A stretch of 64,000 nucleotides of DNA. Origin: Chloroflexota bacterium (GTDB lineage: Bacteria; Chloroflexota; UBA11872). The translations under genes and the position numbers were made by a program. Numbering within the stretch: position 1 is the first letter of the stretch; each line of letters starts with the position of its first letter. Shown in pieces: positions 6,519-57,817 of this stretch. The stretch covers positions 1,986,904-2,050,903 of the forward strand of contig CBDAOU010000002.1 of NCBI GenBank assembly GCA_965198185.1, written 5' to 3'. The notes below the pieces were generated by a model. That model saw only the letters and a list, made by a program, of their open reading frames with translations. It did no database searches and was not told where the DNA came from.

Positions 6519-9320
6519 CTAGGCCTGCGCGCTGGTCAGTGAGCGGGACTGGCGGCTTGGTTGTTGCTCCAACACCTCAATCTTGCAGGCGCAGATTTTG
6601 TATTCGGGGATCTTGGAGATCGGGTCCAGGGCGTTGATGGTGAGCAAGTTGGCGGCGGCCTCGACAAAGTGCCAGCCCATGTAGACGGTGCCGGGCGGAA
6701 CGCGGCGAGTGATCCAGGCGCGGGCCTCGAGGCTGCCGCGGCGGCTGCTGACGCGCACCAGGCCGCTCTTGGGGATGCCCAGCCGGTCGGCGTCCTCCGG
6801 CGACACCTCGACCAGCGGCTCGGGATAGGCATCGTCCAGGCGCGAGCGGCGACTGACCGAGCCGGTGTGCCAGTGGTAGAGCACCCGCCCGGTGTTGAAG
6901 ATGAACGGATATTCCGCGTCGGGGATTTCCACATTCTCGGTCCAGTCGATAGACGTCATGGTGGCCTTGCCGTCGCCGGTGGGGAAGCGGTCGCCGAAGA
7001 GCCACAGCGCGCCGGGGTCGGCGTCATCCAGGCACGGCCAACGGAGCCCCCCCTCACGGTCGAGGCGCTCGTGGCTCAGTCCGGCGTGGCTGGGCGTGAG
7101 GCGGGCAATTTCTTCAAAGATCTCCGCCGGAGTATCGAGTCTCGGGTCGTAGCCCATGCGCCGCGAGAGGTCCAGGACGATTTCCCAGTCCTGCCGCGCT
7201 TCACCCGGCGGGTCGAGGATGGGTCGAACCCGCTGCACGCGCCGATCGGTGTTGGTGAAGGTGCCGTCCTTCTCGGCCCAACTGGCGGCGGGCAGCACGA
7301 CGTCGGCGATCTCGGCCGTCTCCGTCATGAAGATGTCTTGCACCGCCAGAAAGTCGATGTGGTTGAAGTGCTCGCGGGCCGCGTTGAGGTCCGGGTCGGA
7401 CATCAGTGGGTTTTCGCCCATGATGAACATGGCCCGCAGGTCTCTACGCCCGACGGCATCGGCGATCTCCATGGTCGTCAGGCCCTTGACCGGAGGCAGC
7501 GCGACGCCCCAGGCTCTCTCGAACACCCCACGAACCCCTGCATCCTCGACCGAGCGGTAGTCGGTGAAATACATCGGAATCGCGCCCACGTCGCTGGTGC
7601 CTTGGACGTTGTTCTGCCCGCGCAGAGGATTGAGGCCCGTGCCGCGCCGCCCCACGTTGCCGGTGGCCAGGCAGAGGTTGATGAGCGTGAGGCAGGCGTC
7701 GGTGCCGTGGGTTTGCTCGGAAATGCCGACGCCCCAGTAGAAGGCCGTCTTGCCGGCCTCGCCGATGATGTGGGCGGCGCGCTCGATGTCAGCCGCCGGA
7801 ATGCCGGTGAGCGCCTGCTGCCGCTCGGGCGTCCAGGCGCGCACCGACTCGGCCACGGCCTCGAAGTTGTTCACCCGCGCGGATACGAACTCCTCGTCCA
7901 CCAGTCCGTCGCGGATCACCACGTGCAGCAGGGCGTTGTACATGGGCACGTCGGTGCCAGTGCGGAACTGCAGGTGCACGTCGGCCCAGCGGGTGAGCTC
8001 GATGGCGCGCGGGTCGGCCACGATCAGCTGGGCTCCGTCCCGCACGGCGGCCTTCATCTTGAGGGCCGTGATGGGGTGGGTTTCGGTGGTGTTCGAGCCG
8101 GTGACGAAGATCACGTCGTTCTCGGCGATCTCGTCGAGCGAATTGGTGAAGGCGCCGGTCCCGAGGGAAATGTCGAGCGCCGCGACGGATGAGGCGTGGC
8201 AGAGCCGGGTGCAGTTGTCGATGTTGTTGGTTTGCAGCGCCGCGCGCGTGAACTTCTGCAGCAGGTAGTTCTCCTCGTTGGTGCACTTGGACGACGCATA
8301 GACCGCCACCGCGTCGGTTCCATGCGTGTCGCGGTGGTGCGCCAGCCGCTGCGCCGTCAGGTCGAGCGCCTCGTCCCAACTCGCGCGCCGCCAGCGACCC
8401 TCGCCACGCGCGCCGACGCGGATGAGGGGGTGCGTGAGGCGGTCCTCGTGCTGCGCGTAGTCCCAGCCGTAGCGGCCCTTGACGCACAGCCAGCCCTGGT
8501 TGACCGGGTGATCGTCGGGCGAGTCCACGTGGGTGATGGCGCCGTCGCGGACGTGCGCGGTGAGGCCGCAGCCGACGCCGCAGAATGAGCAGGTGGTCTC
8601 GACGACGCGGTCGTCGGTGAGCTGCCCGCGCTGCTCGGCTTCCCATTGGGCACGACCCTTGAGCGCGCCGCTGGGACACACCTGCACGCAGTTGCCGCAA
8701 TAGACGCAGGTGGTGTCCATCATGCCGTCGTACTCGGAGGTGCCCACGCGGACCTCGAATCCACGCTCCGCCGGCTCGATGGCAAAGGTGAACTGGACCT
8801 GATCGCCGCAGACATCCACGCAGCGCCAGCACATGACGCACTTGTTGTAGTCGCGGATGTAGTAGGAGTTGTCGACATAGATGGGAAAGGGCGCTCGCTC
8901 GGCGTCGGTGCCGGCCTCGACGCCATAGGCCGCACACAGATCCGCCAGATCGGGAGCTTCGCTCAAGTCGACACCGCCAAGGAGCAGGCGCAGCGACCCG
9001 CGGCGCGACGCGCGCACGTTGTGGCTGTTCGTGTAGACCACCTGGCCCGGCTCGGCCTTGGCGCGGCAGGACGGCAGCAGCTTGGACGCTTGGCGTTCGG
9101 GGGCGCCGGGCGAGGGTTCGGCGTCGGAGCCGTTGGGGCTGAGCGACTGTTCGACGACACACAGGCGGCAATTGGCCGACGCCGCGATGTTGGGGTGGAA
9201 GCAGAGCGTGGGCACGTCCAGGCCCGCCGCGCCTGCCGCGTCGAGCAGCGTCGCGCCCGACGGGACCGACACGGGTCGCCCATCGATCGTCAGGCTGATG
9301 TCGTCGGCCGCCACAGCCAT
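6519..9320 (-). CDS. fdhA: NAD-dependent formate dehydrogenase alpha subunit. It is a molybdopterin oxidoreductase with a NuoG-like N-terminus carrying 2Fe-2S and 4Fe-4S clusters.
   Basis: N-terminal 2Fe-2S ferredoxin-like region (LTIDGRPVSVPSGATLLDAAG...PTLCFHP) and CxxCxxC clusters. MopB motifs are present. Active-site CTRLCHASSVAAL carries Cys, not Sec. Start taken at MAVAADD. Confidence 0.8.
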   Translation of the reverse strand: MAVAADDISLTIDGRPVSVPSGATLLDAAGAAGLDVPTLCFHPNIAASANCRLCVVEQSLSPNGSDAEPSPGAPERQASKLLPSCRAKAEPGQVVYTNSHNVRASRRGSLRLLLGGVDLSEAPDLADLCAAYGVEAGTDAERAPFPIYVDNSYYIRDYNKCVMCWRCVDVCGDQVQFTFAIEPAERGFEVRVGTSEYDGMMDTTCVYCGNCVQVCPSGALKGRAQWEAEQRGQLTDDRVVETTCSFCGVGCGLTAHVRDGAITHVDSPDDHPVNQGWLCVKGRYGWDYAQHEDRLTHPLIRVGARGEGRWRRASWDEALDLTAQRLAHHRDTHGTDAVAVYASSKCTNEENYLLQKFTRAALQTNNIDNCTRLCHASSVAALDISLGTGAFTNSLDEIAENDVIFVTGSNTTETHPITALKMKAAVRDGAQLIVADPRAIELTRWADVHLQFRTGTDVPMYNALLHVVIRDGLVDEEFVSARVNNFEAVAESVRAWTPERQQALTGIPAADIERAAHIIGEAGKTAFYWGVGISEQTHGTDACLTLINLCLATGNVGRRGTGLNPLRGQNNVQGTSDVGAIPMYFTDYRSVEDAGVRGVFERAWGVALPPVKGLTTMEIADAVGRRDLRAMFIMGENPLMSDPDLNAAREHFNHIDFLAVQDIFMTETAEIADVVLPAASWAEKDGTFTNTDRRVQRVRPILDPPGEARQDWEIVLDLSRRMGYDPRLDTPAEIFEEIARLTPSHAGLSHERLDREGGLRWPCLDDADPGALWLFGDRFPTGDGKATMTSIDWTENVEIPDAEYPFIFNTGRVLYHWHTGSVSRRSRLDDAYPEPLVEVSPEDADRLGIPKSGLVRVSSRRGSLEARAWITRRVPPGTVYMGWHFVEAAANLLTINALDPISKIPEYKICACKIEVLEQQPSRQSRSLTSAQA

Positions 9321-9366
9321 TCCCCTCCACCCCTGTAACACCAGACTACGCCAGGAAAGGCGCCGG

Positions 9367-9561
9367 TCACTGCTTGTCGGGCGGCGGTCCTTCAGGCGGC
9401 TCCCGAAAGAGGAGGCGAAAGATATAGGCCAGCCAGGCCAGCGAAACCAAGATCACGGGCGGAACCAGGACCGCCAGCAGCAGGCCGGCGTCGACCGTCG
9501 CGCCGCCGGCGTCGGGCGCGCTGCCGGCCGGGCCGGCGCACGTGGCGCCCATCAGCGCCAT
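9367..9561 (-). CDS. Putative small membrane protein, about 64 aa with one or two TM segments.
   Basis: Hydrophobic C-terminus LLLAVLVPPVILVSLAWLAYIFRLLF. Start uncertain. Confidence 0.25.
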   Translation of the reverse strand: MALMGATCAGPAGSAPDAGGATVDAGLLLAVLVPPVILVSLAWLAYIFRLLFREPPEGPPPDKQ

Positions 9562-23742: not shown

Positions 23743-24603
23743 CTAAGCCTTCGGGCTGATCACGACCCGACGCTCATCGCCTTCACCGATGCTATAGGTG
23801 CGGACGTTTTCGTCGTCGGCCAGGGCCACGTGGATGAGCCGGCGTTCATTGGCCGGCATGGACTCGAGCGTCACGGGCTCCTGGGTCTCGGATACCTCGT
23901 CCGCGAGAGTCTCGGCGAGCTCCTGCAGGTGATCGGCGCGGCGCGCGCGATAGCTATTGACGTCGATGAGCACGCGGCACGGTTGGCCGAGTTGCCGTCC
24001 GGCCATGAGGTTGATGAGGTAGCCGAACGACCGCAGCGTGGACCCATGCCTTCCGATCAGCTTGGAGAAATCGTCGTCGCCGACGACGTTGAAGGCGAGC
24101 GGGTCTTCGTCGACGAGCTCGATCTCCGCGATGAAGCCCATGCGATCGAGCATGCCGGCGAGCATGTCCTCGACGATGTCCTGCAGCTCTTCGCCGCTCT
24201 CAACCAGAGAGCGAGACGCGCGGGGGCGGGGCGCGGGTTGCTCCGCGACCGGCGCCTCGCTGGGTTCCGACACGGTTGGAGCGGGCGGCGGCGGCGGTGG
24301 GACGGCCGGCTCGCTCGGCTCGGCGACGCGGGCGGGGGGCTCCACGTCCGGCTCGGCCGGGGGCTCATGCTCCGCCTCGTCGATGGTGGCGGAAAAGGGC
24401 CGCTCGCGGCGCACGACGCGCACGCGCGCTTCGGCATCCCGGCGCAGCAGGCGCGAGCCGCCACTGGACAGGATTTCGACGTCAACGTCGTCGATGGTGG
24501 CATTGAGTTGCCGCAGCGCCTGCCGCAGCGCCTCTTCAACAGATGCGCCGGTCGCTTCGACGCTCTCTGGAGCGTCCGGGGAGTCGGTTGGATGGTCAGC
24601 CAC
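23743..24603 (-). CDS. khpB: RNA-binding protein KhpB/Jag (Jag_N, KH and R3H domains) with a Pro-rich insert.
   Basis: Jag N-terminal domain, a KH-like region and the C-terminal R3H motif (ERRLIHVALAD). It sits immediately downstream of yidC as in the canonical cluster. Confidence 0.75.
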   Translation of the reverse strand: MADHPTDSPDAPESVEATGASVEEALRQALRQLNATIDDVDVEILSSGGSRLLRRDAEARVRVVRRERPFSATIDEAEHEPPAEPDVEPPARVAEPSEPAVPPPPPPAPTVSEPSEAPVAEQPAPRPRASRSLVESGEELQDIVEDMLAGMLDRMGFIAEIELVDEDPLAFNVVGDDDFSKLIGRHGSTLRSFGYLINLMAGRQLGQPCRVLIDVNSYRARRADHLQELAETLADEVSETQEPVTLESMPANERRLIHVALADDENVRTYSIGEGDERRVVISPKA

Positions 24604-26236
24604 TGCGCCTCCTTCGACGTCGCCGTCGCCGCGGTGTGGTCGTCACACCCTCGCCACGGAGCTGGTCCGCGGCTTCGCTGTTTTCGTCGTCATCCGATGT
24701 CTTGGGCTCGGTCGGCGCGACCTTGCGAGCCGTCATATCGCGCGCGATGGGCCAGTGCGCGGGAATCAGCGCACCGGTTCCGGTTGTGAAGTATTGCTGC
24801 ACGATGGCAATGATGCTGGAAATCACCCAATACAGCACCAGACCCGCTTGGAACGACCAGGCGAAGATGACCACGATGATCGGCATGAACTGCATCACCC
24901 GGTTCACGGTTGCCTGCTGCCCCTCGGCGGTCTTCGAGGCCATCATGCGGGCTTGCGCGAACTGGAACGCGCCCGCCAAGAGCGCCAACAGCGAGATATA
25001 AAACCCACCCGTCCCGAACACGTCTTGTTGGATGGGAATCCGAGTGAAGCCGGCGTTGCCGGCGGCGGTTTGTCCCTGCCGACTGTCCCACCACTTTTGC
25101 ACGTACTGTTCGCCGTCGGTTTCGCCCGGCGCCCAATAGACGTACGCCTCGCGGGCCAGGGGATAGTTCTCGTCACGCAGCGCCGCCACATGCGCCGAGA
25201 AGGCGCGTTCGGCGCCGTCGGCTTCAATGTTAATCATGCGAATGTCCTCGCGCAGGATCGGCCCCGAGATGCCGAGCGCTCCAGGGTCGGCGATGAGATC
25301 CGCGACATAGTCATCGACCGTTGCCCGCAACTGAACGATCCGCGGCGGGATGGTCTCGCCGTCGAGGAGCAGCTCCGAGAGCAGGTCTCGACTGCCGATA
25401 TCGTTCCCGAGGCCAAAGATAGTGATCGGGCCGGCGGGCAGGCCGAGCTGAGACCAATTGGTGATCTCGCCTCGCAGAATCTGAGCGGCTTCGGCCTCCG
25501 TGAGTCGCGTGAGGGGGCGATCGCGCTCCACGACGAACGCGGCCGCCTGCATCAGTCGAGCTTCCGTGGTGCCCGGCGGGAATTGGCCAAGCTCCAGCCG
25601 ATCACGGACGAACGCGGCGCTCGCACGCCCGCTCGAAACCGCGGCCGCCGAATCGCCAGGATCGACGGTATCCACCGTGAAGCGGAAATTGGCGTTTTGG
25701 CCCGCAAACTCCGCCGCCACCTGCGATTCCAACGGGGTGATCGGAAACGTGGTCGCCAGATGCACGTCGGTGGGGGCCGTTGGGCTGGACTCGCCGAGGA
25801 CCGGAATCGTCGCGTCCTCACGCGCCAGGTTGAACCAGAGGAACTGCTCGTTGAGGAGCCCACGACCGCTCAAGGTGAGAATGCCGCCGTAGAGCGCGAG
25901 CAGGATCGGCAGCTGCACGAAGATGGGCAGGCAGCCCGAGAGCGGGCTGACGCCGTGCTCCTTGTAGAGACGCATCGTGGCCTGCGACTGCGCCTGCCGG
26001 TCGTTCCTGAACTTGCGGCGGATCTCGGCCATTTCGGGCTGTAGGACCTGCATGCGCCGTTGCGAGCGGATCTGCTTCACGGTGAGCGGGATCATCAGCG
26101 TCCGAATCGCGATCGTGAACAGAATGATCGCGATGGCATAGCTCCCGACGCCGTCGCGGATGAGACTGAGAACCTCGCTGAGTGGGTTGACGGCCCACGT
26201 CTGCCAGGTTTCGCCGATGCTGGAAAAGAGTTCCAT
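24596..26236 (-). CDS. yidC: Membrane protein insertase YidC with a roughly 270-aa inserted extracytoplasmic substrate-binding-protein-like domain.
   Basis: Conserved YidC core TM segments (PLTVKQIRSQRRMQVLQPEMAEIRRKF, GCLPIFVQLPI). A long non-YidC insert lies between core TMs. A Lys/Arg-rich tail follows. Confidence 0.8.
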   Translation of the reverse strand: MELFSSIGETWQTWAVNPLSEVLSLIRDGVGSYAIAIILFTIAIRTLMIPLTVKQIRSQRRMQVLQPEMAEIRRKFRNDRQAQSQATMRLYKEHGVSPLSGCLPIFVQLPILLALYGGILTLSGRGLLNEQFLWFNLAREDATIPVLGESSPTAPTDVHLATTFPITPLESQVAAEFAGQNANFRFTVDTVDPGDSAAAVSSGRASAAFVRDRLELGQFPPGTTEARLMQAAAFVVERDRPLTRLTEAEAAQILRGEITNWSQLGLPAGPITIFGLGNDIGSRDLLSELLLDGETIPPRIVQLRATVDDYVADLIADPGALGISGPILREDIRMINIEADGAERAFSAHVAALRDENYPLAREAYVYWAPGETDGEQYVQKWWDSRQGQTAAGNAGFTRIPIQQDVFGTGGFYISLLALLAGAFQFAQARMMASKTAEGQQATVNRVMQFMPIIVVIFAWSFQAGLVLYWVISSIIAIVQQYFTTGTGALIPAHWPIARDMTARKVAPTEPKTSDDDENSEAADQLRGEGVTTTPRRRRRRRRRSG

Positions 26237-26251
26237 GGCGCGGGCCCGCGG

Positions 26252-37033: not shown

Positions 37034-38257
37034 CTAGGGCGGCGAGGCCACGTCCGACGGCGGTGCGGCCGACGCGCGCGGCGCGAACCTGATCCGCAGC
37101 TGGCCCTCCTCGAGCCGCGCCCGTTGATGCTCCATGCGGGCCAGGGCGCGGGGCAGGACGATGTTGCGGCGCGCCGCACCCATGCGCACCACCAGCTCGT
37201 CTCCGCGACGGATCAGCGCGGCGTCGCGGCGGTCGATGAAGGGCGCCGGAATCTGAAACTCAAATCCGCCGTCGATCTGGGCAATGTGGTAGGGCCGCTC
37301 GCGCACCAGCACCGCGGCCGGGTCCTGATCGCCATGCAGCTGGTCTCCCATTTCCCGCAGGCGGTCGAGCCCGACCACTTCCTCCGGAAATTGGGGAACC
37401 TGGAGCACGGGCAGGGGGTCGAACATGGAGTGGATTTCGCGCATGTAGCGTTGCTGCATGCGGCGCCAGCTCGCGGCAAAGTCGCCCGTGGCCTCCGCCG
37501 GGACGAGGCGGTTCACCACCAGTGCATCGGTTATGTGGTCGTACAGCGTCAGGTAGGTGTAGCTGCGCTGAGCCTCGCGGATGACCATCTTCTCGGGATT
37601 CACCACGATCCTGACCGTCGACTGGCCCGGACGGGTGAGCAACACCCGCAGTTTCTCCAACTCCTCCACCAGCTCGCCCATGGCGACGAAAACGGAATCC
37701 TCGGGTAGCGGCAGATCGGTGACGCGCCGCGCCATCGGGCGAATCATGCGCGCGAGTTGGCGATTGATGGGCAGCAGCTTGTCCATCCACCAGCGACCGA
37801 CCTCGGGAAACGCCAGCAGGCGCAGTGTCTCGCCCGTGGGCGCGCAGTCCACGATCACGACGTCGAAGTCGCCGGACTCGACGTGGCGGGTGATCCAGAG
37901 CAGGTTGGCGAGCTCCTCCATGCCCGGGAGCACGGCGATTTCCTCGGCCAGGAGGTCGCTGACACCGCGCCAGGTCAGCAGCGCCTCGACCCAGGATTGG
38001 ACAGTGCCCCAATAGGTTTCGAGGTTGTAGTAGATGTCGCATTCCTGGGCCCAGAGTCGCTCGGTCACCTCGATCGGCTCGGGGCCAAGCGGCCGGTCCA
38101 GAGAGTCGCCCAGGCTGTGCGCCGCGTCGGTGCTGAGCACGATGGTGCGCGCGCCGCGCTCGGCGCAGCGCAGGGCAGCGGCGGCGGCGACGCTGGTCTT
38201 GCCCACGCCGCCCTTGCCGGTGTACAGGATGACGCGGGCGCTGTCAGCGGGTGGCAA
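37034..38257 (-). CDS. ArsA/GET3-family anion-transporting ATPase.
   Basis: Deviant Walker A GKGGVGKTS and the ArsA family pattern. Confidence 0.75.
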   Translation of the reverse strand: MPPADSARVILYTGKGGVGKTSVAAAAALRCAERGARTIVLSTDAAHSLGDSLDRPLGPEPIEVTERLWAQECDIYYNLETYWGTVQSWVEALLTWRGVSDLLAEEIAVLPGMEELANLLWITRHVESGDFDVVIVDCAPTGETLRLLAFPEVGRWWMDKLLPINRQLARMIRPMARRVTDLPLPEDSVFVAMGELVEELEKLRVLLTRPGQSTVRIVVNPEKMVIREAQRSYTYLTLYDHITDALVVNRLVPAEATGDFAASWRRMQQRYMREIHSMFDPLPVLQVPQFPEEVVGLDRLREMGDQLHGDQDPAAVLVRERPYHIAQIDGGFEFQIPAPFIDRRDAALIRRGDELVVRMGAARRNIVLPRALARMEHQRARLEEGQLRIRFAPRASAAPPSDVASPP

Positions 38258-39329
38258 GGTCGGGCTCCAACTGGGACAGGCTCACGTGCAGCGGGGCTTC
38301 GCGCGCACCGGCGACCCGCCCGACGGTGGCCGTCGCCAACGCCCCCGCGGCGGCGAGCGCCTCGCGCAACGCGTGCTCATCCTCGGGCGGAATGGCGATG
38401 AGCAGCCCACCGCTGGTTTGGGCGTCGGCGAGCAGCAGCCGTTCCGCCGCGGGCAACTGAGCCACCCACTCCACCTGGCCTTCCAGCGCGGCCAGGTTGC
38501 GCTCGGTGCCGCCCGGCACCTCGTCCGCGGCGATGAGCTCGCGCACGTGCGGCAGCACGGGCACCCGGTCGGCAAACACCGTGGCCGAGCAGCCGCTGGC
38601 CTGCATCATTTCGCGCAGATGCCCCAAGAGCCCGTAGCCGGTGACATCCGTCATGGCATGGGCGCCTAACCTGCTCGCCGCTTCGGCCGCCGCTCGATTC
38701 AGCGTCCGCATGCTGGCCACGGCCGCGGCCAACGCCTCGGGCGGCGCCGCGTCGTGCTTGAGCGCGGTGCTGATGACGCCCGTCCCGATCGGTTTGGTGA
38801 GCACCAGCAGGTCGCCGGGACGCGCCCCGGCGTTGGTGATGAGCGCGTCCGGATGCGCCGTGCCAATGACCGCCATGCCGAACTTGGGCACCGGATCGTC
38901 CACGGAATGCCCGCCGGCGACCACGGCGCCCGCCTCCAGCACGGTGTCGGCGCCGCCGCGCTGGATCTCGGCCAGCACGTCGAGCGACAGCGTGTCGCGC
39001 GGAAATCCGGCGAGGTTGAGCGCCAACAACGGCGTGGCGGCCATGGCGTAAATGTCGCTGAGCGCGTTTGCCGCCGCGATGGCGCCAAAGTCGTAGGGGT
39101 CGTCGACGATGGGCGTGAAGACGTCGATCGTCGCCACGATCGCCAGGTCGTCGCGCAGTCGGTAGACGGCGGCGTCATCGAACGCGGCGGCGTCCACCAA
39201 CAGGTCGACGTGGGCCATTCGCGGCATGCGGCGCATCACGTGCGCCAGCTCGGTCGAGCTGAGCTTGCAGGCTCAGCCGGCGCCGGGCGAATACCGCGTG
39301 AGCTTTGGTTGCGTCACATCCGAGGTCAT
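38244..39329 (-). CDS. selD: Selenide, water dikinase (selenophosphate synthetase) with UGA-encoded selenocysteine at codon 19 (plus-strand 39273-39275).
   Basis: The track ORF begins at MMRRMPRM. Extending upstream in-frame gives MTSDVTQPKLTRYSPGAG-U-ACKLSSTELAHV, which aligns with E. coli SelD LTQYSHGAGC17GCKISPKVLETIL. Downstream, TIDVFTPIVDDPYDFGAIAAANALSDIYAM matches the SelD core. Confidence 0.85.
39243..39266 (-). promoter_or_regulatory. Candidate SECIS-like hairpin 3' of the selD UGA.
   Basis: The mRNA reads UGA-GCC-UGC-AAG-CUCAGCUC-GACC-GAGCUGGC. A 7-8-bp stem with a 4-nt loop begins about 13 nt after the UGA. Confidence 0.4.
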
Positions 39330-39391
39330 TCTGGCAATCTACAGTACGCGAGAGGCGCCGCCGGCCCGGGCGCCGGGAGAGGCTCCGAAGG

Positions 39392-46113: not shown

Positions 46114-49100
46114 CTACGCGCGGAAACGCCTGATGACTGTAGCCGCGGCCGGGAGGGCGTAGCGCTTTCCGGGGCCGAGCGCGGCGGGTGACTGCGGTGG
46201 GCCGGCGCGCCGTGCCGACACTCCGGCAAAGATGCGGAGCTCGTTGCGCCGCCGGGTGTGGGCGGTGCCGACGTGGGCCATTCCGATCTGGCGTCCGTTG
46301 GCGATTCGCGTGGCGCTGGTGACGGTTCCGATCCAGGCGCCGCGTCGATCCGTGACGGGATCGCCCTGGCGCGCCATGGGCACCCGCTCGTCGGCTATCG
46401 AGAAGCGCACGATGGCCGACTCGCGTTCCGCCTCGCGCCGCACGTAGGGATCGCGCCCGACGAAGAACGGCTTGTAGGCCTTGACGAAGCGCCCGAATCC
46501 GGCGTCGCCCGGCGTGAGGTCCAGCGGCCCGGCAAGCTCATGCCCGTAGAGTGGGAACCCGGCCTCGGTGCGGGTGGAGTCGCGCGCTCCGAGCCCTACC
46601 GGCACGACGCCGTCGTCGGCGCCCGCTTCGAGGATCGCGTCCCACACGGCGCGGGCCACCTCGGGGTGCACGAAAACCTCGAAGCCGATCGCTTCGCCCG
46701 TGTAGCCCGTGTGGGCAATCTCAACGTCGGCGCCGGCGAGCGTGAAGGCGCGCACGTGGTTCATGCGCATGGCGTCGAGGGCGCGCCGCTCCTCGTCCGT
46801 GGCGACGATCCGTTGCAGGACCCGGCGCGAGTGCGGCCCCTGGAACGCCAGATCGAGCCGCGCTGCGTCGCCCGCCGACCGGCTGTTGAGGTCCACGAGA
46901 TCAGCGCGAACCGGAAGCCGCGCCGCGCCGTCGCACGAAACGACCTGATAGGCGCCGTCGTTCACGCCCGTCAGCCAGGCCCAATTCTTGGGCGCGTTGG
47001 CCGCGTTGACCACCGCCATGAATCGCTCGCGGGCCAGGCGGTAGATGATGAGGTCGTCGAGGCAGTTGCCGTCGGCGTCGAGCAGATAGGTGTAGGCTGC
47101 ACGTCCCACCGGCAGGCGAGTGGCGCTGCCGGTGACGACGAGGTCCAGGAACTCGGCGGCGGCGGGTCCGGAGACGGCGAAAGCCCCCATGTGCCCCACG
47201 TCGAACAGCCCGGCCGTCTTCCGCACCGCCTGGTGCTCCGCCGCAATGCTCGTGTACCAGACCGGCATGTCCCAGCCCGCGAAGGGGACCAGCTTCTTCG
47301 CTTGCTCGGCGTGGAACGCGTGGAGCGGCGTGCGCCTCAGCTCGTTCGACTCGGGCTCGCGCCATTCGAACGGCTGGGGGCCGTCGCTGCCGACGGGAAC
47401 CGAGCGCCGGCCCACGAACCAGGGACGCGACGCGTCGTCGGCAGGCGCCTCGGGCAACGGCGCGCCGGTGGGCCCGAGGCTTGCCAGGGCGTCCGTCACC
47501 GGCGGTGCATCGCCGTCAGCCACGGTCACCGAGACCGGGCCGCTGAGCTTCCGGCTGGGCTCGTCGGGGTCGACGATTACGTAGCCGTCGGACGCCGCCT
47601 GAAGCCAGTCGGCCAGCTCATCGGCGCGGTTGGGGTCGACGACGATCAAGGCGGAAGCCTCGTCTGCTTCGGCGGGTCGGACCACCGTTGCGCTAACTGG
47701 GTCGCTGCCGGGAGAACCCGCCAGGGCCACTCGGCGCGCCTGCCCCGGCTCGAGATCGCGCACGCGCCGGTTGGCAACCTCGTCCAGGAACTGCAGCGCC
47801 CGAGCGCCGCGAACGAGCAGCAGGCCGGAAGTGCAGGCCGGAGGGTCGGCGGGCGGCGGTCCCTCGGCGTGTCCGCGACGGGCGAAATCGAGCACCTCGG
47901 AGCGCAGCGACCGCATGGCGTCGTAGGCCATGCGGCCACGGTAGCGCGGGGTCCTGCGGCCGCTGTAGGCCACGCCGTGCATGGCGCGAAACGCGCGCGC
48001 CAAGATGCCGGCCAGCGTCTTCATATCGTCCGTGCCGTAGCCGCGCTGGGTTAGCCAGGGCGTGCCCATCCGAATGCCGGTGGGCGCGGCGAAGCCGCGG
48101 TCGCCGGGCACGGAGTTGCGGTTGGCCACCACGCCCAGGGCGTCCAGCATGCGCACGGCCGGCTCGCCGCGCAGATCGCCGGCGGCTCCGACGCGGCGCA
48201 GATTCACCACGAACAGATGGGTGTCGGTGCCGCCGTAGGCCACGCCCACGCCTTCCGCCTCCAGGGCGTCGACGAGCGCCCTCGCATTGGCCGTGATCTG
48301 TCGCTGGGTGCGGTGGAACGCCTCGGTGGCCGCGAGCTTGAACATGACCGCCATGGCCGCGATCTTGTTGAGGTGCGGGCCGCCCTGCTCGCCGGGAAAC
48401 ACGGAGCGATCGACCGAGCGCATCAGGTCGCGCCGGTGCGACAGGATCACCGCGCCGCGCGGGCCGAACAGCGTCTTGTGCGTGGTGAACGTCACGACAT
48501 CGGCGATGCCCACGGGCGAGGGGTAAGCGCCCGCGACGACGAGCCCCGCCGGATGTGAGATGTCGGCCATCAGCAGCGCGCCCACGTCGTCGGCGATGGC
48601 GCGGAAGCGCTCCCAGTCGGGCGCCCACGGATACGAGGTGTATCCGGCGATGATCAGCCGGGGCCGGGCGGCCTTGGCCCGCGCGGCAATGTCGTCGTAG
48701 TCGAGCTGCGCGTCCGGGCCCGGAATGCGGTAGCTGGTCGATTTGAACCGGCGTCCCGACCGGTTCACGGATGCGCCGTGGCTCAAGTGCCCGCCGTGGG
48801 CCAGGGCCAGCCCCATGATGGTGTCGTCGGGCTCGAGCAGGGCCTCCTCGACGGCGTTATTGGCCGCCGCGCCCGAGAGCGGCTGCACGTTGACCCACAA
48901 GGCGTCGGCCGCCACGCGGTCGTTGGCAAAGAGGTCCGCGCAGCGGCGCTGCGCCAGGGCTTCTACCAGGTTGCTGAACTCGTTGCCGCGGTAGTAGCGG
49001 CGATCGCCGTAGCGCCGGGTGCGGGCAAGCTGCCGGTCGAGGTCCGCCAGCGCCGCCTCCTGGTCGCGGATCATCGCGGCCGCCGCATAGCCCTCGGCGT

Positions 49101-49287
49101 AGATGCTGGTGAACGGCGACGCCAGCGCGTCCCGCACCGGCTTGGGCGTGAGGCTCTCGGACGGGATGAGGATGAGCTTGTCGCGCTGGCGTGCGTGCTC
49201 GCGCTCGATGAGGTCGGCCACCAGCGGGTCAACGTCGGAAACGGGGCGGTCGAGCGCGAGGTCGGCGTAGGTCGGGTCGAGGGACAT
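46114..49287 (-). CDS. glyA-gcvT: Fusion protein: N-terminal serine hydroxymethyltransferase-like PLP domain, a roughly 200-aa middle region, and a C-terminal glycine-cleavage T-protein (aminomethyltransferase, GcvT) domain.
   Basis: SHMT motifs (LIPSESLTPKP...; FTTHKTLFGPRG with the PLP lysine). GcvT motifs (RTPLHAFHAEQAKKLVPFAGWDMPVWY, FDVGHMG). Single uninterrupted 1057-aa frame. Confidence 0.75.
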   Translation of the reverse strand: MSLDPTYADLALDRPVSDVDPLVADLIEREHARQRDKLILIPSESLTPKPVRDALASPFTSIYAEGYAAAAMIRDQEAALADLDRQLARTRRYGDRRYYRGNEFSNLVEALAQRRCADLFANDRVAADALWVNVQPLSGAAANNAVEEALLEPDDTIMGLALAHGGHLSHGASVNRSGRRFKSTSYRIPGPDAQLDYDDIAARAKAARPRLIIAGYTSYPWAPDWERFRAIADDVGALLMADISHPAGLVVAGAYPSPVGIADVVTFTTHKTLFGPRGAVILSHRRDLMRSVDRSVFPGEQGGPHLNKIAAMAVMFKLAATEAFHRTQRQITANARALVDALEAEGVGVAYGGTDTHLFVVNLRRVGAAGDLRGEPAVRMLDALGVVANRNSVPGDRGFAAPTGIRMGTPWLTQRGYGTDDMKTLAGILARAFRAMHGVAYSGRRTPRYRGRMAYDAMRSLRSEVLDFARRGHAEGPPPADPPACTSGLLLVRGARALQFLDEVANRRVRDLEPGQARRVALAGSPGSDPVSATVVRPAEADEASALIVVDPNRADELADWLQAASDGYVIVDPDEPSRKLSGPVSVTVADGDAPPVTDALASLGPTGAPLPEAPADDASRPWFVGRRSVPVGSDGPQPFEWREPESNELRRTPLHAFHAEQAKKLVPFAGWDMPVWYTSIAAEHQAVRKTAGLFDVGHMGAFAVSGPAAAEFLDLVVTGSATRLPVGRAAYTYLLDADGNCLDDLIIYRLARERFMAVVNAANAPKNWAWLTGVNDGAYQVVSCDGAARLPVRADLVDLNSRSAGDAARLDLAFQGPHSRRVLQRIVATDEERRALDAMRMNHVRAFTLAGADVEIAHTGYTGEAIGFEVFVHPEVARAVWDAILEAGADDGVVPVGLGARDSTRTEAGFPLYGHELAGPLDLTPGDAGFGRFVKAYKPFFVGRDPYVRREAERESAIVRFSIADERVPMARQGDPVTDRRGAWIGTVTSATRIANGRQIGMAHVGTAHTRRRNELRIFAGVSARRAGPPQSPAALGPGKRYALPAAATVIRRFRA

Positions 49288-49353
49288 CAGGGCATCCTGG
49301 CGATCAACGCCGTAAGCGTACGGCGGCTCAGCGGGGGCGACGAACGCGGCCGG

Positions 49354-57226: not shown

Positions 57227-57817
57227 TCACGCACGGTCGAGCCACTCGTCCACAAGCCGGGCCTGGGCATCGGCGGACAGACGGTAGTCACAGCCGGTCG
57301 CGGCGCGCTGGCGCGTAGTCTCGTGGAGGCAAATGGCAGCAGCCACGGAGAGGTTGAGGCTGCGAACCATGCCGACCGTGGCGATGCTCATGACCTGGTC
57401 GGCCGCCGCCAGCGCCTCGTCGGAAAGCCCGCGATGCTCGTTGCCGAATAGCAGGGCGAGTCGCGGCGCCGTGAGGTTGGCCGCCGCGAGTTCGCACCCG
57501 CGTGGAGGCGGTGCGGAAGCCACCAGCACGTGGCCTGACGCCCGCAGCGCGTCCAGGCACGCGGCGGTCGAGCGGTGCACCGTGAAGCTCAGCCACTTGT
57601 TCGCCGAGGCGGACGACGCCTTGCCGACGCGTCGCGGCTCGAACGGCGCCTCGTGCTCGAAGACCAGATGCACCTGCTGCACGCCGAACGCGTCGCAACT
57701 CCGAAACACGGCTTCCGCGTTGTGCGGATCGTGGATGTCCTCGAGCACGATCGTCAGCCCGGCCTGCCGGGCAGCCGCCACGGACCGCAGGCGATCGATG
57801 CGGCGTGCGGTCGCCAT
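57227..57817 (-). CDS. SpoU/TrmH-family RNA 2'-O-methyltransferase.
   Basis: SPOUT motifs (LVLEDIHDPHN, LLFGNEHRGLS, SLNLSVAAAI). Confidence 0.75.
   Translation of the reverse strand: MATARRIDRLRSVAAARQAGLTIVLEDIHDPHNAEAVFRSCDAFGVQQVHLVFEHEAPFEPRRVGKASSASANKWLSFTVHRSTAACLDALRASGHVLVASAPPPRGCELAAANLTAPRLALLFGNEHRGLSDEALAAADQVMSIATVGMVRSLNLSVAAAICLHETTRQRAATGCDYRLSADAQARLVDEWLDRA

Follow-up and report, generated by a model that had tools for sequence, protein, structure and literature searches.

The selD gene of an uncultured Chloroflexota lineage very probably encodes a selenoprotein. Within the 64-kb stretch of DNA that we analyzed (the window), codon 19 of this gene is an in-frame UGA whose decoding as selenocysteine (Sec) would proceed via a SECIS hairpin inside the coding sequence, most likely the stem-loop that we call H2. 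SelD enzymes of the Sec type are well known and very common, and their genes are regularly truncated by gene callers; the literature ranks SelD second among bacterial selenoproteins in how widely it occurs and describes it as "frequently misannotated" (PMC13326102).

The selD reading frame extends upstream of an in-frame TGA

Direct translation of the minus strand gives a selD start at ATG 39329-39327, an in-frame TGA at 39275-39273, and a stop TGA at 38246-38244, confirming the start, the UGA position, and the frame that an earlier note on this DNA had proposed. The features of the gene are as follows.

38244..39329, minus strand: complete selD coding sequence of 361 codons and a stop codon, codon 19 being the predicted Sec (from translation, HMM, and E. 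coli SelD match)
39276..39329, minus strand: 18 N-terminal codons dropped by ORF callers, MTSDVTQPKLTRYSPGAG, with a coding-type substitution pattern in relatives
39273..39275, minus strand: putative Sec codon UGA, codon 19, aligned with E. coli Cys17
39245..39263, minus strand: hairpin H1, (C)UCAGCUC[GACC]GAGCUGG, nt 13-31 from the U of the UGA
39230..39246, minus strand: hairpin H2, GGCGCA[CGUGA]UGCGCC, nt 30-46 from the U of the UGA, the most probable SECIS

Around the TGA, the translation reads MTSDVTQPKLTRYSPGAG*ACKLSSTELAHVMRRMPRM... When searched against the PDB with phmmer, the protein matched E. coli SelD (3U0O) over residues 9-344 (E = 2e-79). Its residues 9-22 (KLTRYSPGAG-x-ACK) aligned to residues 7-20 of 3U0O (RLTQYSHGAGCGCK), which pairs the TGA codon with Cys17 and K22 with Lys20. 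The Gly-rich loop, G-A-G-[UGA]-A-C-K, matches both G-A-G-C17-G-C-K20 of E. coli and the Cys-type relatives, which carry (R/S)(F/Y/L)SHGAGCACKL at the UGA site. Profile searches returned the NCBIfam selD model TIGR00476 (381.6 bits against a cut-off of 125, residues 9-317) and NF002098 (365.3 bits against 299, residues 6-350), along with the Pfam domains PF00586 (AIRS) and PF02769 (AIRS_C), and the window SelD retains all invariant columns of our SelD alignment A1. Position 1 of TIGR00476 corresponds to residue 9, which is 5' of the TGA.

Gene calls for this locus begin further downstream. A mechanical ORF list starts SelD at GTG 39239 (331 aa), and the public gene call (P0001) starts it at ATG 39236 (330 aa). 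Both starts lie 12 to 13 codons 3' of the TGA, inside or directly 3' of the H2 loop, and the catalytic loop is lost from both products. Together with the HMM match that begins upstream, these calls bear out the earlier claim that ORF calling had missed the 5' end of selD. The same loss is seen in about 60 related database clusters, in which SelD is stored as products of 320 to 330 aa without the catalytic loop.

The TGA and the codons before it are conserved

We compared nine clade members spanning 62 to 100% SelD identity. Among the matches listed by our scans of genome and metagenome contigs, all SelD relatives were at most 62% identical; closer ones were fetched singly. All nine clade members retain an ATG, approximately 18 codons, a TGA, and then ACKLS, and the same TGA is present in loci L001-L003, L084-L087, and L168-L171. 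The first of these groups consists of three independent metagenome contigs from two samples that carry an identical SelD with the TGA. In the last 10 codons 5' of the TGA, the nine relatives vary at 1 of 10 first positions, 1 of 10 second positions, and 9 of 10 third positions, and 8 of the 10 codons show synonymous variation only. Because variation is biased in this way toward third positions, we conclude that the stretch of selD before the TGA is translated.

The TGA extends well beyond the clade: among 166 SelD loci that we fetched from public genomes and metagenomes, spanning many phyla, 114 have it at the catalytic site. The earlier note had held SelD to be itself a selenoprotein in which UGA occupies the catalytic Cys/Sec position, a reading now supported by the alignment with Cys17, by purifying selection upstream of the TGA, and by these 114 loci. 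Alignment with Sec- and Cys-type SelD sequences, which the same note had suggested, placed the UGA on the Cys position with the upstream stretch retained.

Other readings of the TGA can be weighed against these data. If the TGA were a true stop, the gene would be a pseudogene or would encode a truncated SelD beginning at GTG 39239 or ATG 39236, as the public gene calls of 320 to 330 aa for the window SelD and about 60 relatives imply; the failure to see Sec machinery in the 64-kb window also leans this way. We consider this highly improbable, since such a protein would miss the Sec/Cys-x-x-Lys catalytic loop present in the SelD model and structures, the 18 codons 5' of the TGA carry a clear in-frame coding substitution pattern, the TGA does not vary even among lineages with as little as 62% identity, and the called starts sit in or right past the H2 loop. 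The UGA could instead be read as a residue other than Sec, either Cys via a Sec-like tRNA or Trp by near-cognate decoding. A few bacteria are known to have variant systems with a tRNA-Sec-like molecule, and the present data do not separate Sec from another inserted residue. Even so, we regard this reading as very unlikely: its prior is very low relative to standard Sec decoding, a SECIS-like hairpin of the SelB type is conserved specifically in selD genes that bear the TGA, and TGA serves as an ordinary stop codon of selD and of adjacent genes. A sequencing or assembly error that turned a Cys codon into TGA has a negligible chance of being the explanation; TGA differs from TGC or TGT by a single base, but the identical TGA recurs in the three independent contigs and in eight further lineages.

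Two hairpins lie downstream of the UGA

If the UGA is decoded as Sec, a recoding hairpin would be expected behind it. We scanned for hairpins with the published bSECIS model, which calls for a loop of 3 to 9 nt, an upper stem of 4 to 16 bp, a G in loop position 1 or 2, a UGA-loop spacing of 16 to 37 nt, and a minimum free energy (MFE) of at most -7.5 kcal/mol (PMC13188914); bulges were disallowed as implemented here. This bSECISearch-type scan, another check that the earlier note had put forward, found two compliant hairpins behind the window UGA, H1 and H2. In the wider comparison set, 86 of the 108 Sec-type selD genes had a compliant hairpin, compared to 2 of the 50 Cys-type genes. The 60 nt past the UGA were no more stable than shuffled sequences (z = -0.69), and since the fold is not thermodynamically significant, the argument for a SECIS rests on comparative data.

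These comparisons favor H2, the predicted SECIS of the window selD. H2 has 6 to 7 bp, an energy of -9.9 to -10.5 kcal/mol, and 32 nt from the UGA to the loop, and it agrees with the bSECIS model in loop, stem, G position, spacing, and MFE. It was found in all nine clade members. Pairing at the H2 position was seen in 79.9% of cells across the 108 Sec-type genes, compared to 38.3% across the 50 Cys-type genes, with mean pair probabilities of 0.47 and ≤0.08, respectively; in slid registers, only 30 to 51% of cells pair. Covariation was 0.295, compared to 0.149 in shuffles, and none of 500 shuffles reached the observed value. Part of the conservation of H2 is due to the protein, because the hairpin overlaps the conserved codons A-H-V-M/L-R. 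A compliant hairpin with a GU loop occurred in the H2 zone of 70 of the 108 Sec-type genes. Most Sec-type selD genes may share a two-hairpin layout in which a spacer hairpin is followed by a distal GU-loop SECIS at approximately 33 nt. The 32-nt spacing in the window is near the top of the 16- to 37-nt range.

The earlier note had assigned the SECIS position to H1, CUCAGCUC-GACC-GAGCUGG, with its first base about 13 nt after the UGA. This hairpin exists, with 7 pairs at -9 to -9.7 kcal/mol, and falls within the loose bSECIS constraints (7 bp, loop GACC with G first, UGA-loop spacing of 17 nt), but its first base is 9 nt past the UGA, not 13, and it is poorly kept in L084-L087. Conservation, covariation, and restriction to Sec-type genes point instead to the adjacent downstream hairpin, H2. 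That H1, with its GACC loop, is nevertheless the functional SECIS we judge unlikely, though it merits more serious consideration than the other readings above. The SECIS of E. coli fdhF has its loop G23-U24 counted from the U of the UGA, and the H1 loop lies near it, at nt 21-24. In addition to its 7 pairs, opening G, and -9.0 kcal/mol, H1 has a canonical helix (11-18/22-29) that is enriched in Sec-type genes (69.7% of cells paired, compared to 51.0% in Cys-type genes), and a compliant hairpin falls in the H1 zone of 19 of the 108 Sec-type genes. In a BSepDB example, the Acetomicrobium SelD, the first hairpin also lies here (PMC13326102). Against H1, its register shifts across the nine clade members, in which the zone folds at -3.3 to -12.8 kcal/mol. 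In L084-L087, the four closest relatives tested, the inner pairs are broken, the best fold reaches -3.3 to -4.7 kcal/mol, and none of the four has a compliant hairpin. Furthermore, the GACC loop lacks the usual G[G/U], and when a Sec-type selD gene has a strong H1, the H1 loop is in most cases G-less (e.g., CCC) and the GU sits in H2. We therefore take H2 rather than H1 to be most likely the SECIS, and infer that H2 is the hairpin that SelB would bind.

Proposed synthesis of SelD and comparison with known systems

In the mechanism that we propose, translation would begin at ATG 39329 and the UGA at codon 19 (39275-39273) would be decoded as Sec, with recoding directed by a SECIS in the coding sequence that is bound by SelB carrying Sec-tRNA(Sec). 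H2 (39246-39230) is the element most likely responsible, and its CGUGA loop contains the G-U typical of bacterial SECIS loops; H1 (nt 13-31), just 5' of H2, may serve as a spacer or helper. Sec would be placed in the Gly-rich N-terminal loop G-A-G-U-A-C-K, adjoining the conserved Lys, where it would stand in for Cys17, the catalytic residue in E. coli SelD. As SelD makes selenophosphate, its product would be required for its own synthesis.

Much of this arrangement is familiar. Like fdhF and other bacterial SECIS elements, H2 would be a stem-loop 3' of the UGA within the coding sequence, with a small loop containing a G and then a U. Its GU lies at nt 37-38 from the U of the UGA, compared to nt 23-24 in fdhF, and in the window selD, unlike fdhF, a second hairpin occupies the interval between the UGA and H2. 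Although the catalytic loop of E. coli SelD (3U0O) aligns residue for residue with that of the window SelD, the E. coli gene has a Cys codon (TGC/TGT type) at residue 17 and does not need recoding, whereas the window gene has a UGA and a predicted SECIS. Sec-type SelD proteins, including those of Aquifex aeolicus (2ZOD/2YYE), Haemophilus influenzae, and many Deltaproteobacteria, Clostridia, and Chloroflexota, likewise have UGA in a G-x-G-U-x-x-K loop. They share with the window SelD the AIRS and AIRS_C domains, a SECIS hairpin in the coding sequence, and identical truncation by gene callers (PMC1794560, PMC13326102). Differences from the usual Sec-type SelD are lineage-level only: the usual His of S-H-G-A-G-U is replaced by Pro, CGUGA forms the H2 loop where GUC or GGUCC is more common, and H1 is degenerate.

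Sec machinery and other selenoproteins

Pfam and NCBIfam scans of approximately 40 window proteins found no selA, selB, selU, or yqeB/yqeC, and ARAGORN and Rfam searches for tRNA-Sec in the 64-kb window returned tRNA-Ala only. Within approximately 10 kb of selD, Sec machinery, tRNA-Sec included, was likewise absent from all nine clade loci. A Pfam SelA match near selD in L169 was rejected as a DgaE-family lyase. In other phyla, selA and selB adjoin selD in L053, L044, L034, and others, as judged with E. coli sequences as probes. Because Sec decoding is established to require them, we infer that selA, selB, and selC are encoded elsewhere in the genome. No further selenoprotein genes turned up in the window; in its FdhA, Cys occupies the Sec position, and the one candidate for a TGA-interrupted frame, at 57227-57229, proved to be a regular stop codon, that of a SpoU-type methyltransferase gene, with another gene following in-frame.

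The predicted Sec insertion at codon 19 would leave known selenium biology unchanged, and its main value is for annotation: the window SelD and the about 60 related clusters merit reannotation with U at codon 19. A Sec-type SelD would also indicate that this uncultured Chloroflexota lineage uses selenocysteine, with SelD dependent on its own product although the window FdhA is of the Cys type. Beyond this lineage, comparing Sec- and Cys-type genes provides a reusable control showing which selD hairpin is recoding-specific.

Expression of selD and the adjoining Get3/ArsA-fold ATPase

Three further features, two of them candidate expression signals, flank or overlap selD.

39336..39341, minus strand: TAGATT, candidate -10 element of a leaderless transcript
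38265..38268, minus strand: GGAG, candidate Shine-Dalgarno sequence in the 3' end of selD, 7 nt 5' of the ATPase TTG start
37034..38257, minus strand: Get3/ArsA-fold ATPase with an HSP20-like C-terminal domain (TIGR00345, Pfam)

TAGATT lies 6 nt 5' of the selD ATG and is found at the same distance in eight of the nine clade members; it could conceivably be the -10 element of a leaderless transcript. A consensus scan for sigma-70 promoters and terminators around selD gave no match.

The ATPase gene starts at TTG 38257 and overlaps the 3' end of selD, which ends at 38244, by 14 nt, exactly as the earlier note had read it. The 407-aa product scored 265.8 bits against TIGR00345 (TRC40/GET3/ArsA; cut-off, 135), which places it above the family cut-off, and contains the Pfam domains ArsA_ATPase and ArsA_HSP20. 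Identity with the arsenical pump ATPase ArsA was rejected (TIGR04291, 94.9 bits against a cut-off of 650): unlike ArsA, the window protein has a single ATPase domain plus the HSP20-like C-terminal domain, not a duplicated architecture. Its orthologs come from Chloroflexota/Dehalococcoidia.

The ATPase gene is probably cotranscribed with selD and translationally coupled to it, with the GGAG as a possible Shine-Dalgarno site. The coexpression suggested in the earlier note is thus plausible, given the GGAG and the overlap in relatives, but a selenium-specific link is not indicated, and our literature search found no published link between selD and ArsA/Get3. The ATPase might still be a selenium-handling partner of SelD, such as a selenide chaperone or delivery ATPase, because the overlap or adjacency is retained and because a NifS-like aminotransferase is nearby in a sister lineage, where the gene order is selD, an unknown gene, the ATPase, and the aminotransferase; we think this improbable. 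In six of seven Chloroflexota lineages (relatives with the overlap include L084-L087, L169, and L170), the ATPase gene directly follows selD with an overlap of 8 to 14 nt, and in the seventh it follows after a 7-nt gap, a pairing more suggestive of synteny particular to the lineage than of a selenium-specific association.

The selD frame and its in-frame UGA

39329-38244, minus strand: selD, from the ATG (39329-39327) to the TGA stop (38246-38244), by direct reading and translation.

The minus-strand frame reads MTSDVTQPKLTRYSPGAG, TGA (39275-39273), ACKLSSTELAHVMRRMPRM... An earlier note had placed this UGA at the catalytic Cys/Sec position of SelD and held that ORF calling had missed it. Indeed, a mechanical ORF list starts SelD at GTG 39239 (331 aa), and in public gene calls the identical protein (P0001) starts at ATG 39236 (330 aa). 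With the TGA translated as Cys, the 361-residue protein scored 381.6 bits against the SelD equivalog model TIGR00476, whose position 1 fell on residue 9, upstream of the TGA. A phmmer search against the PDB matched E. coli SelD (3U0O) at E = 2e-79; its residues 7-20 lay opposite residues 9-22 here, setting Cys17 against the TGA codon and Lys20 against Lys22. The note had also proposed aligning Sec- and Cys-type SelD; at the TGA site, Cys-type relatives (55-59% identity) carry Cys, within (R/S)(F/Y/L)SHGAGCACKL. Given the model match from residue 9, the Cys17 alignment, and these relatives, the observation is correct as written. Residue 15 (39285-39287, minus strand) is Pro in this SelD and in its 91% relative L084, and His in nearly all SelD (S-H-G-A-G-U/C).

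The TGA is present in the same SelD on three independent metagenome contigs (L001-L003). We fetched eight further lineages (L084-L087 and L168-L171; SelD identity, 62 to 91%), and all eight keep the ATG ∼18 codons upstream of the TGA, the peptide KLTRY(S/A)(H/P)GAG before it, and (A/G)CKLS after it. When the 10 codons before the TGA were compared across the clade, 1, 1, and 9 first, second, and third positions were variable, and variation was synonymous only in 8 of the 10. Because of this position pattern and these eight codons, we concluded that the stretch before the TGA is a translated frame. The same coding pattern rules out both a SelD start downstream of the TGA, where the gene callers put it, and a selD pseudogene. 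A sequencing error is ruled out as well, as the TGA and the coding pattern are shared across contigs and lineages.

The motif TAGATT (39336-39341, minus strand) lies exactly 6 nt upstream of the selD ATG, as it does in L084, L085, L087, and L168-L171, and no Shine-Dalgarno sequence was visible; selD may have a leaderless mRNA. A sigma-70 consensus scan around selD found no promoter.

Genome and metagenome scans added at least 160 SelD loci, spread over many phyla; among the matches listed, the site was readable in 166 SelD loci, as TGA in 114 and as TGC or TGT in 52. This agrees with published work, in which SelD ranks second in size among prokaryotic selenoprotein families and has its Sec in the N-terminal loop (PMC13188914). 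In a protein search, the best ∼60 clusters were all 311 to 335 aa, truncated like the ORF in the window, and more distant Cys-type matches were ∼347 to 356 aa. The SelD in the window is a textbook case of a Sec-type SelD truncated by gene callers; the note's main interpretation is right and the finding real. What is new here is minor: a better-supported SECIS assignment and a likely clade-specific operon partner.

Two candidate SECIS hairpins

39263-39245, minus strand: H1, the hairpin proposed as the SECIS in the earlier note; nt 13-31 (counted from the U of UGA), 7 pairs, loop GACC, about -9 to -9.7 kcal/mol.
39246-39230, minus strand: H2, directly after H1; nt 30-46, GGCGCA[CGUGA]UGCGCC, -10.5 kcal/mol.

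Folding of the 60-nt stretch behind the UGA was no more stable than that of shuffles (z = -0.69), so the choice between H1 and H2 could be decided by comparison only. A bSECISearch-type scan, as the note had suggested, was run in a simple implementation (a loop of 3 to 9 nt with G in its first two positions, a stem of 4 bp or longer, 16- to 37-nt spacing, -7.5 kcal/mol or lower; PMC13188914). Compliant hairpins were found in both zones of the selD in the window and in the H2 zone only of the closest relatives (L084-L087). H2 is present in 9/9 clade members (-6.9 to -11.2 kcal/mol); across the same nine, H1 energies span -3.3 to -12.8 kcal/mol and the registers shift. Since the post-UGA region aligns gap-free, 108 distinct Sec-type and 50 Cys-type selD genes (alignments A2 and A3) could be compared.

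Table. Post-UGA hairpins in selD genes (measure; Sec-type; Cys-type)
Mean pair probability, H2 helix 30-36/40-46; 0.47; 0.08 or less
Cells paired, H2; 79.9%; 38.3%
Cells paired, canonical H1 (11-18/22-29); 69.7%; 51.0%
Genes with a hairpin passing bSECIS constraints; 86/108; 2/50

In slid-register controls for H2, 30 to 51% of cells paired. Its covariation score was 0.295 versus 0.149 in shuffles (0/500 as high), and both sides had changed in 67 cells versus 23.5 expected. For example, Thr (ACG) at nt 31 goes with Arg CGU at nt 45, forming an A-U pair, and Ala (GCG) codons accompany CGC or CGU. The common helix is GGCGCAG/CUGCGCC, with GGCCCAG/CUGGGCC and UGACUCAA/UUGAGUCA as alternatives; because the loop is a Val codon (GUN), it contains the G-U commonly seen in SECIS loops of bacteria. 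H1 is weaker than H2, yet enriched among Sec-type genes, 19 of which have a compliant hairpin in the H1 zone and 70 in the H2 zone. Thus H1 exists and passes the constraints, as the note would have it, but H2 is better kept, Sec-specific, and covarying. On these alignments H2 is probably the element that SelB would bind; that H1 is the main SECIS element seems unlikely, and a role as spacer or helper is more likely for it.

Most Sec-type selD mRNAs in A2 have two adjacent hairpins (nt 11-46), the first loop often without G and the second a GUN loop at a distance of ∼33 nt from the UGA. In a minority, one hairpin with a GG loop at ∼nt 21-23 takes their place. This pattern suggests two classes of selD SECIS. 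The H2 apical loop and the bases directly behind it contain the GTG and ATG that callers take as starts (39234-39239, minus strand).

The downstream Get3/ArsA-like ATPase

37034-38257, minus strand: ATPase ORF, GET3/ArsA subfamily model, 265.8 bits.

Identity as an ArsA pump was rejected (equivalog score of 94.9 bits versus a cut-off of 650); the C-terminus is an HSP20-like domain. Direct reading bore out the 14-nt overlap with selD described previously, from a TTG start with GGAG 7 nt upstream. The ATPase directly follows selD in L084-L087, L169, and L170, overlapping it by 8 to 14 nt in five of these six and separated by 7 nt in L170; it is absent from this position in L168 and L171. Given the conserved adjacency and overlap and the GGAG before the TTG, cotranscription and translational coupling are likely in this clade.

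Among the at least 160 other SelD loci listed, the ATPase occurred only in L099, 3.4 kb from selD. In a sister lineage (L173, 2574-8429) ftsK is followed by a Sec-type selD (G-U-G-C-K), an unknown gene of 743 aa, then the ATPase (ArsA_HSP20) and a class-V aminotransferase (NifS/Sec-lyase-like), possibly a selenium-delivery link. L099 (4054-8723) shares this order, the unknown gene spanning ∼743 to 850 aa in the two loci, and the aminotransferase was called in L173 only. Named ATPase homologs belong to Chloroflexota/Dehalococcoidia, and in Dehalococcoides mccartyi no selD lies near the ortholog. A literature search found no paper linking selD with an ArsA/Get3 gene. The coexpression proposed earlier is therefore likely within the clade, where five further lineages keep the overlap, but the two genes seem to be paired through inherited synteny and not through any general link to selenium.

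Search for Sec machinery, and other genes in the window

Rfam found no tRNA-Sec in the 64-kb window (only tRNA-Ala), Pfam and NCBIfam scans of ∼40 window proteins found no selA, selB, selU, or yqeB/yqeC, and the 10 kb around selD in nine relatives held no Sec machinery genes. By the rule that organisms with a Sec-type SelD decode Sec (PMC1273633, PMC1794560), we infer that the machinery is presumably present in this genome. A Pfam "SelA" match 9.5 kb from the Sec-type selD of L169 (16860-17373, minus strand) was rejected as a DgaE-family (selA-related) ammonia lyase, a trap for automated Sec-trait calls.

6519-9452, minus strand: FdhA (TIGR01591, 793.6 bits), extended at the N-terminus by a NuoG-like 2Fe-2S/4Fe-4S region.

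This FdhA reads NCTRLCHASS, with Cys where many FdhA proteins have Sec, so SelD uses Sec and FdhA uses Cys in the same window. In a crude scan of the window for further frames interrupted by TGA, the one candidate proved to be an ordinary stop: two same-frame ORFs around the TGA at 57227-57229 (minus strand) resembled a selenoprotein and were rejected, since this TGA normally ends a SpoU-type RNA methyltransferase gene and the 202-aa ORF behind it is unrelated.

Two gene fusions were also seen. A 1,079-aa serine hydroxymethyltransferase-GcvT fusion (46114-49353, minus strand; both NCBIfam models above cut-offs) has counterparts of 1,051 to 1,134 aa near selD in L084-L087, L168, and L170. The second (24596-26251, minus strand) joins a membrane insertase of the YidC type (60KD_IMP) to a PBP_like_2 periplasmic-binding-protein-like domain and adjoins a Jag/KhpB gene.
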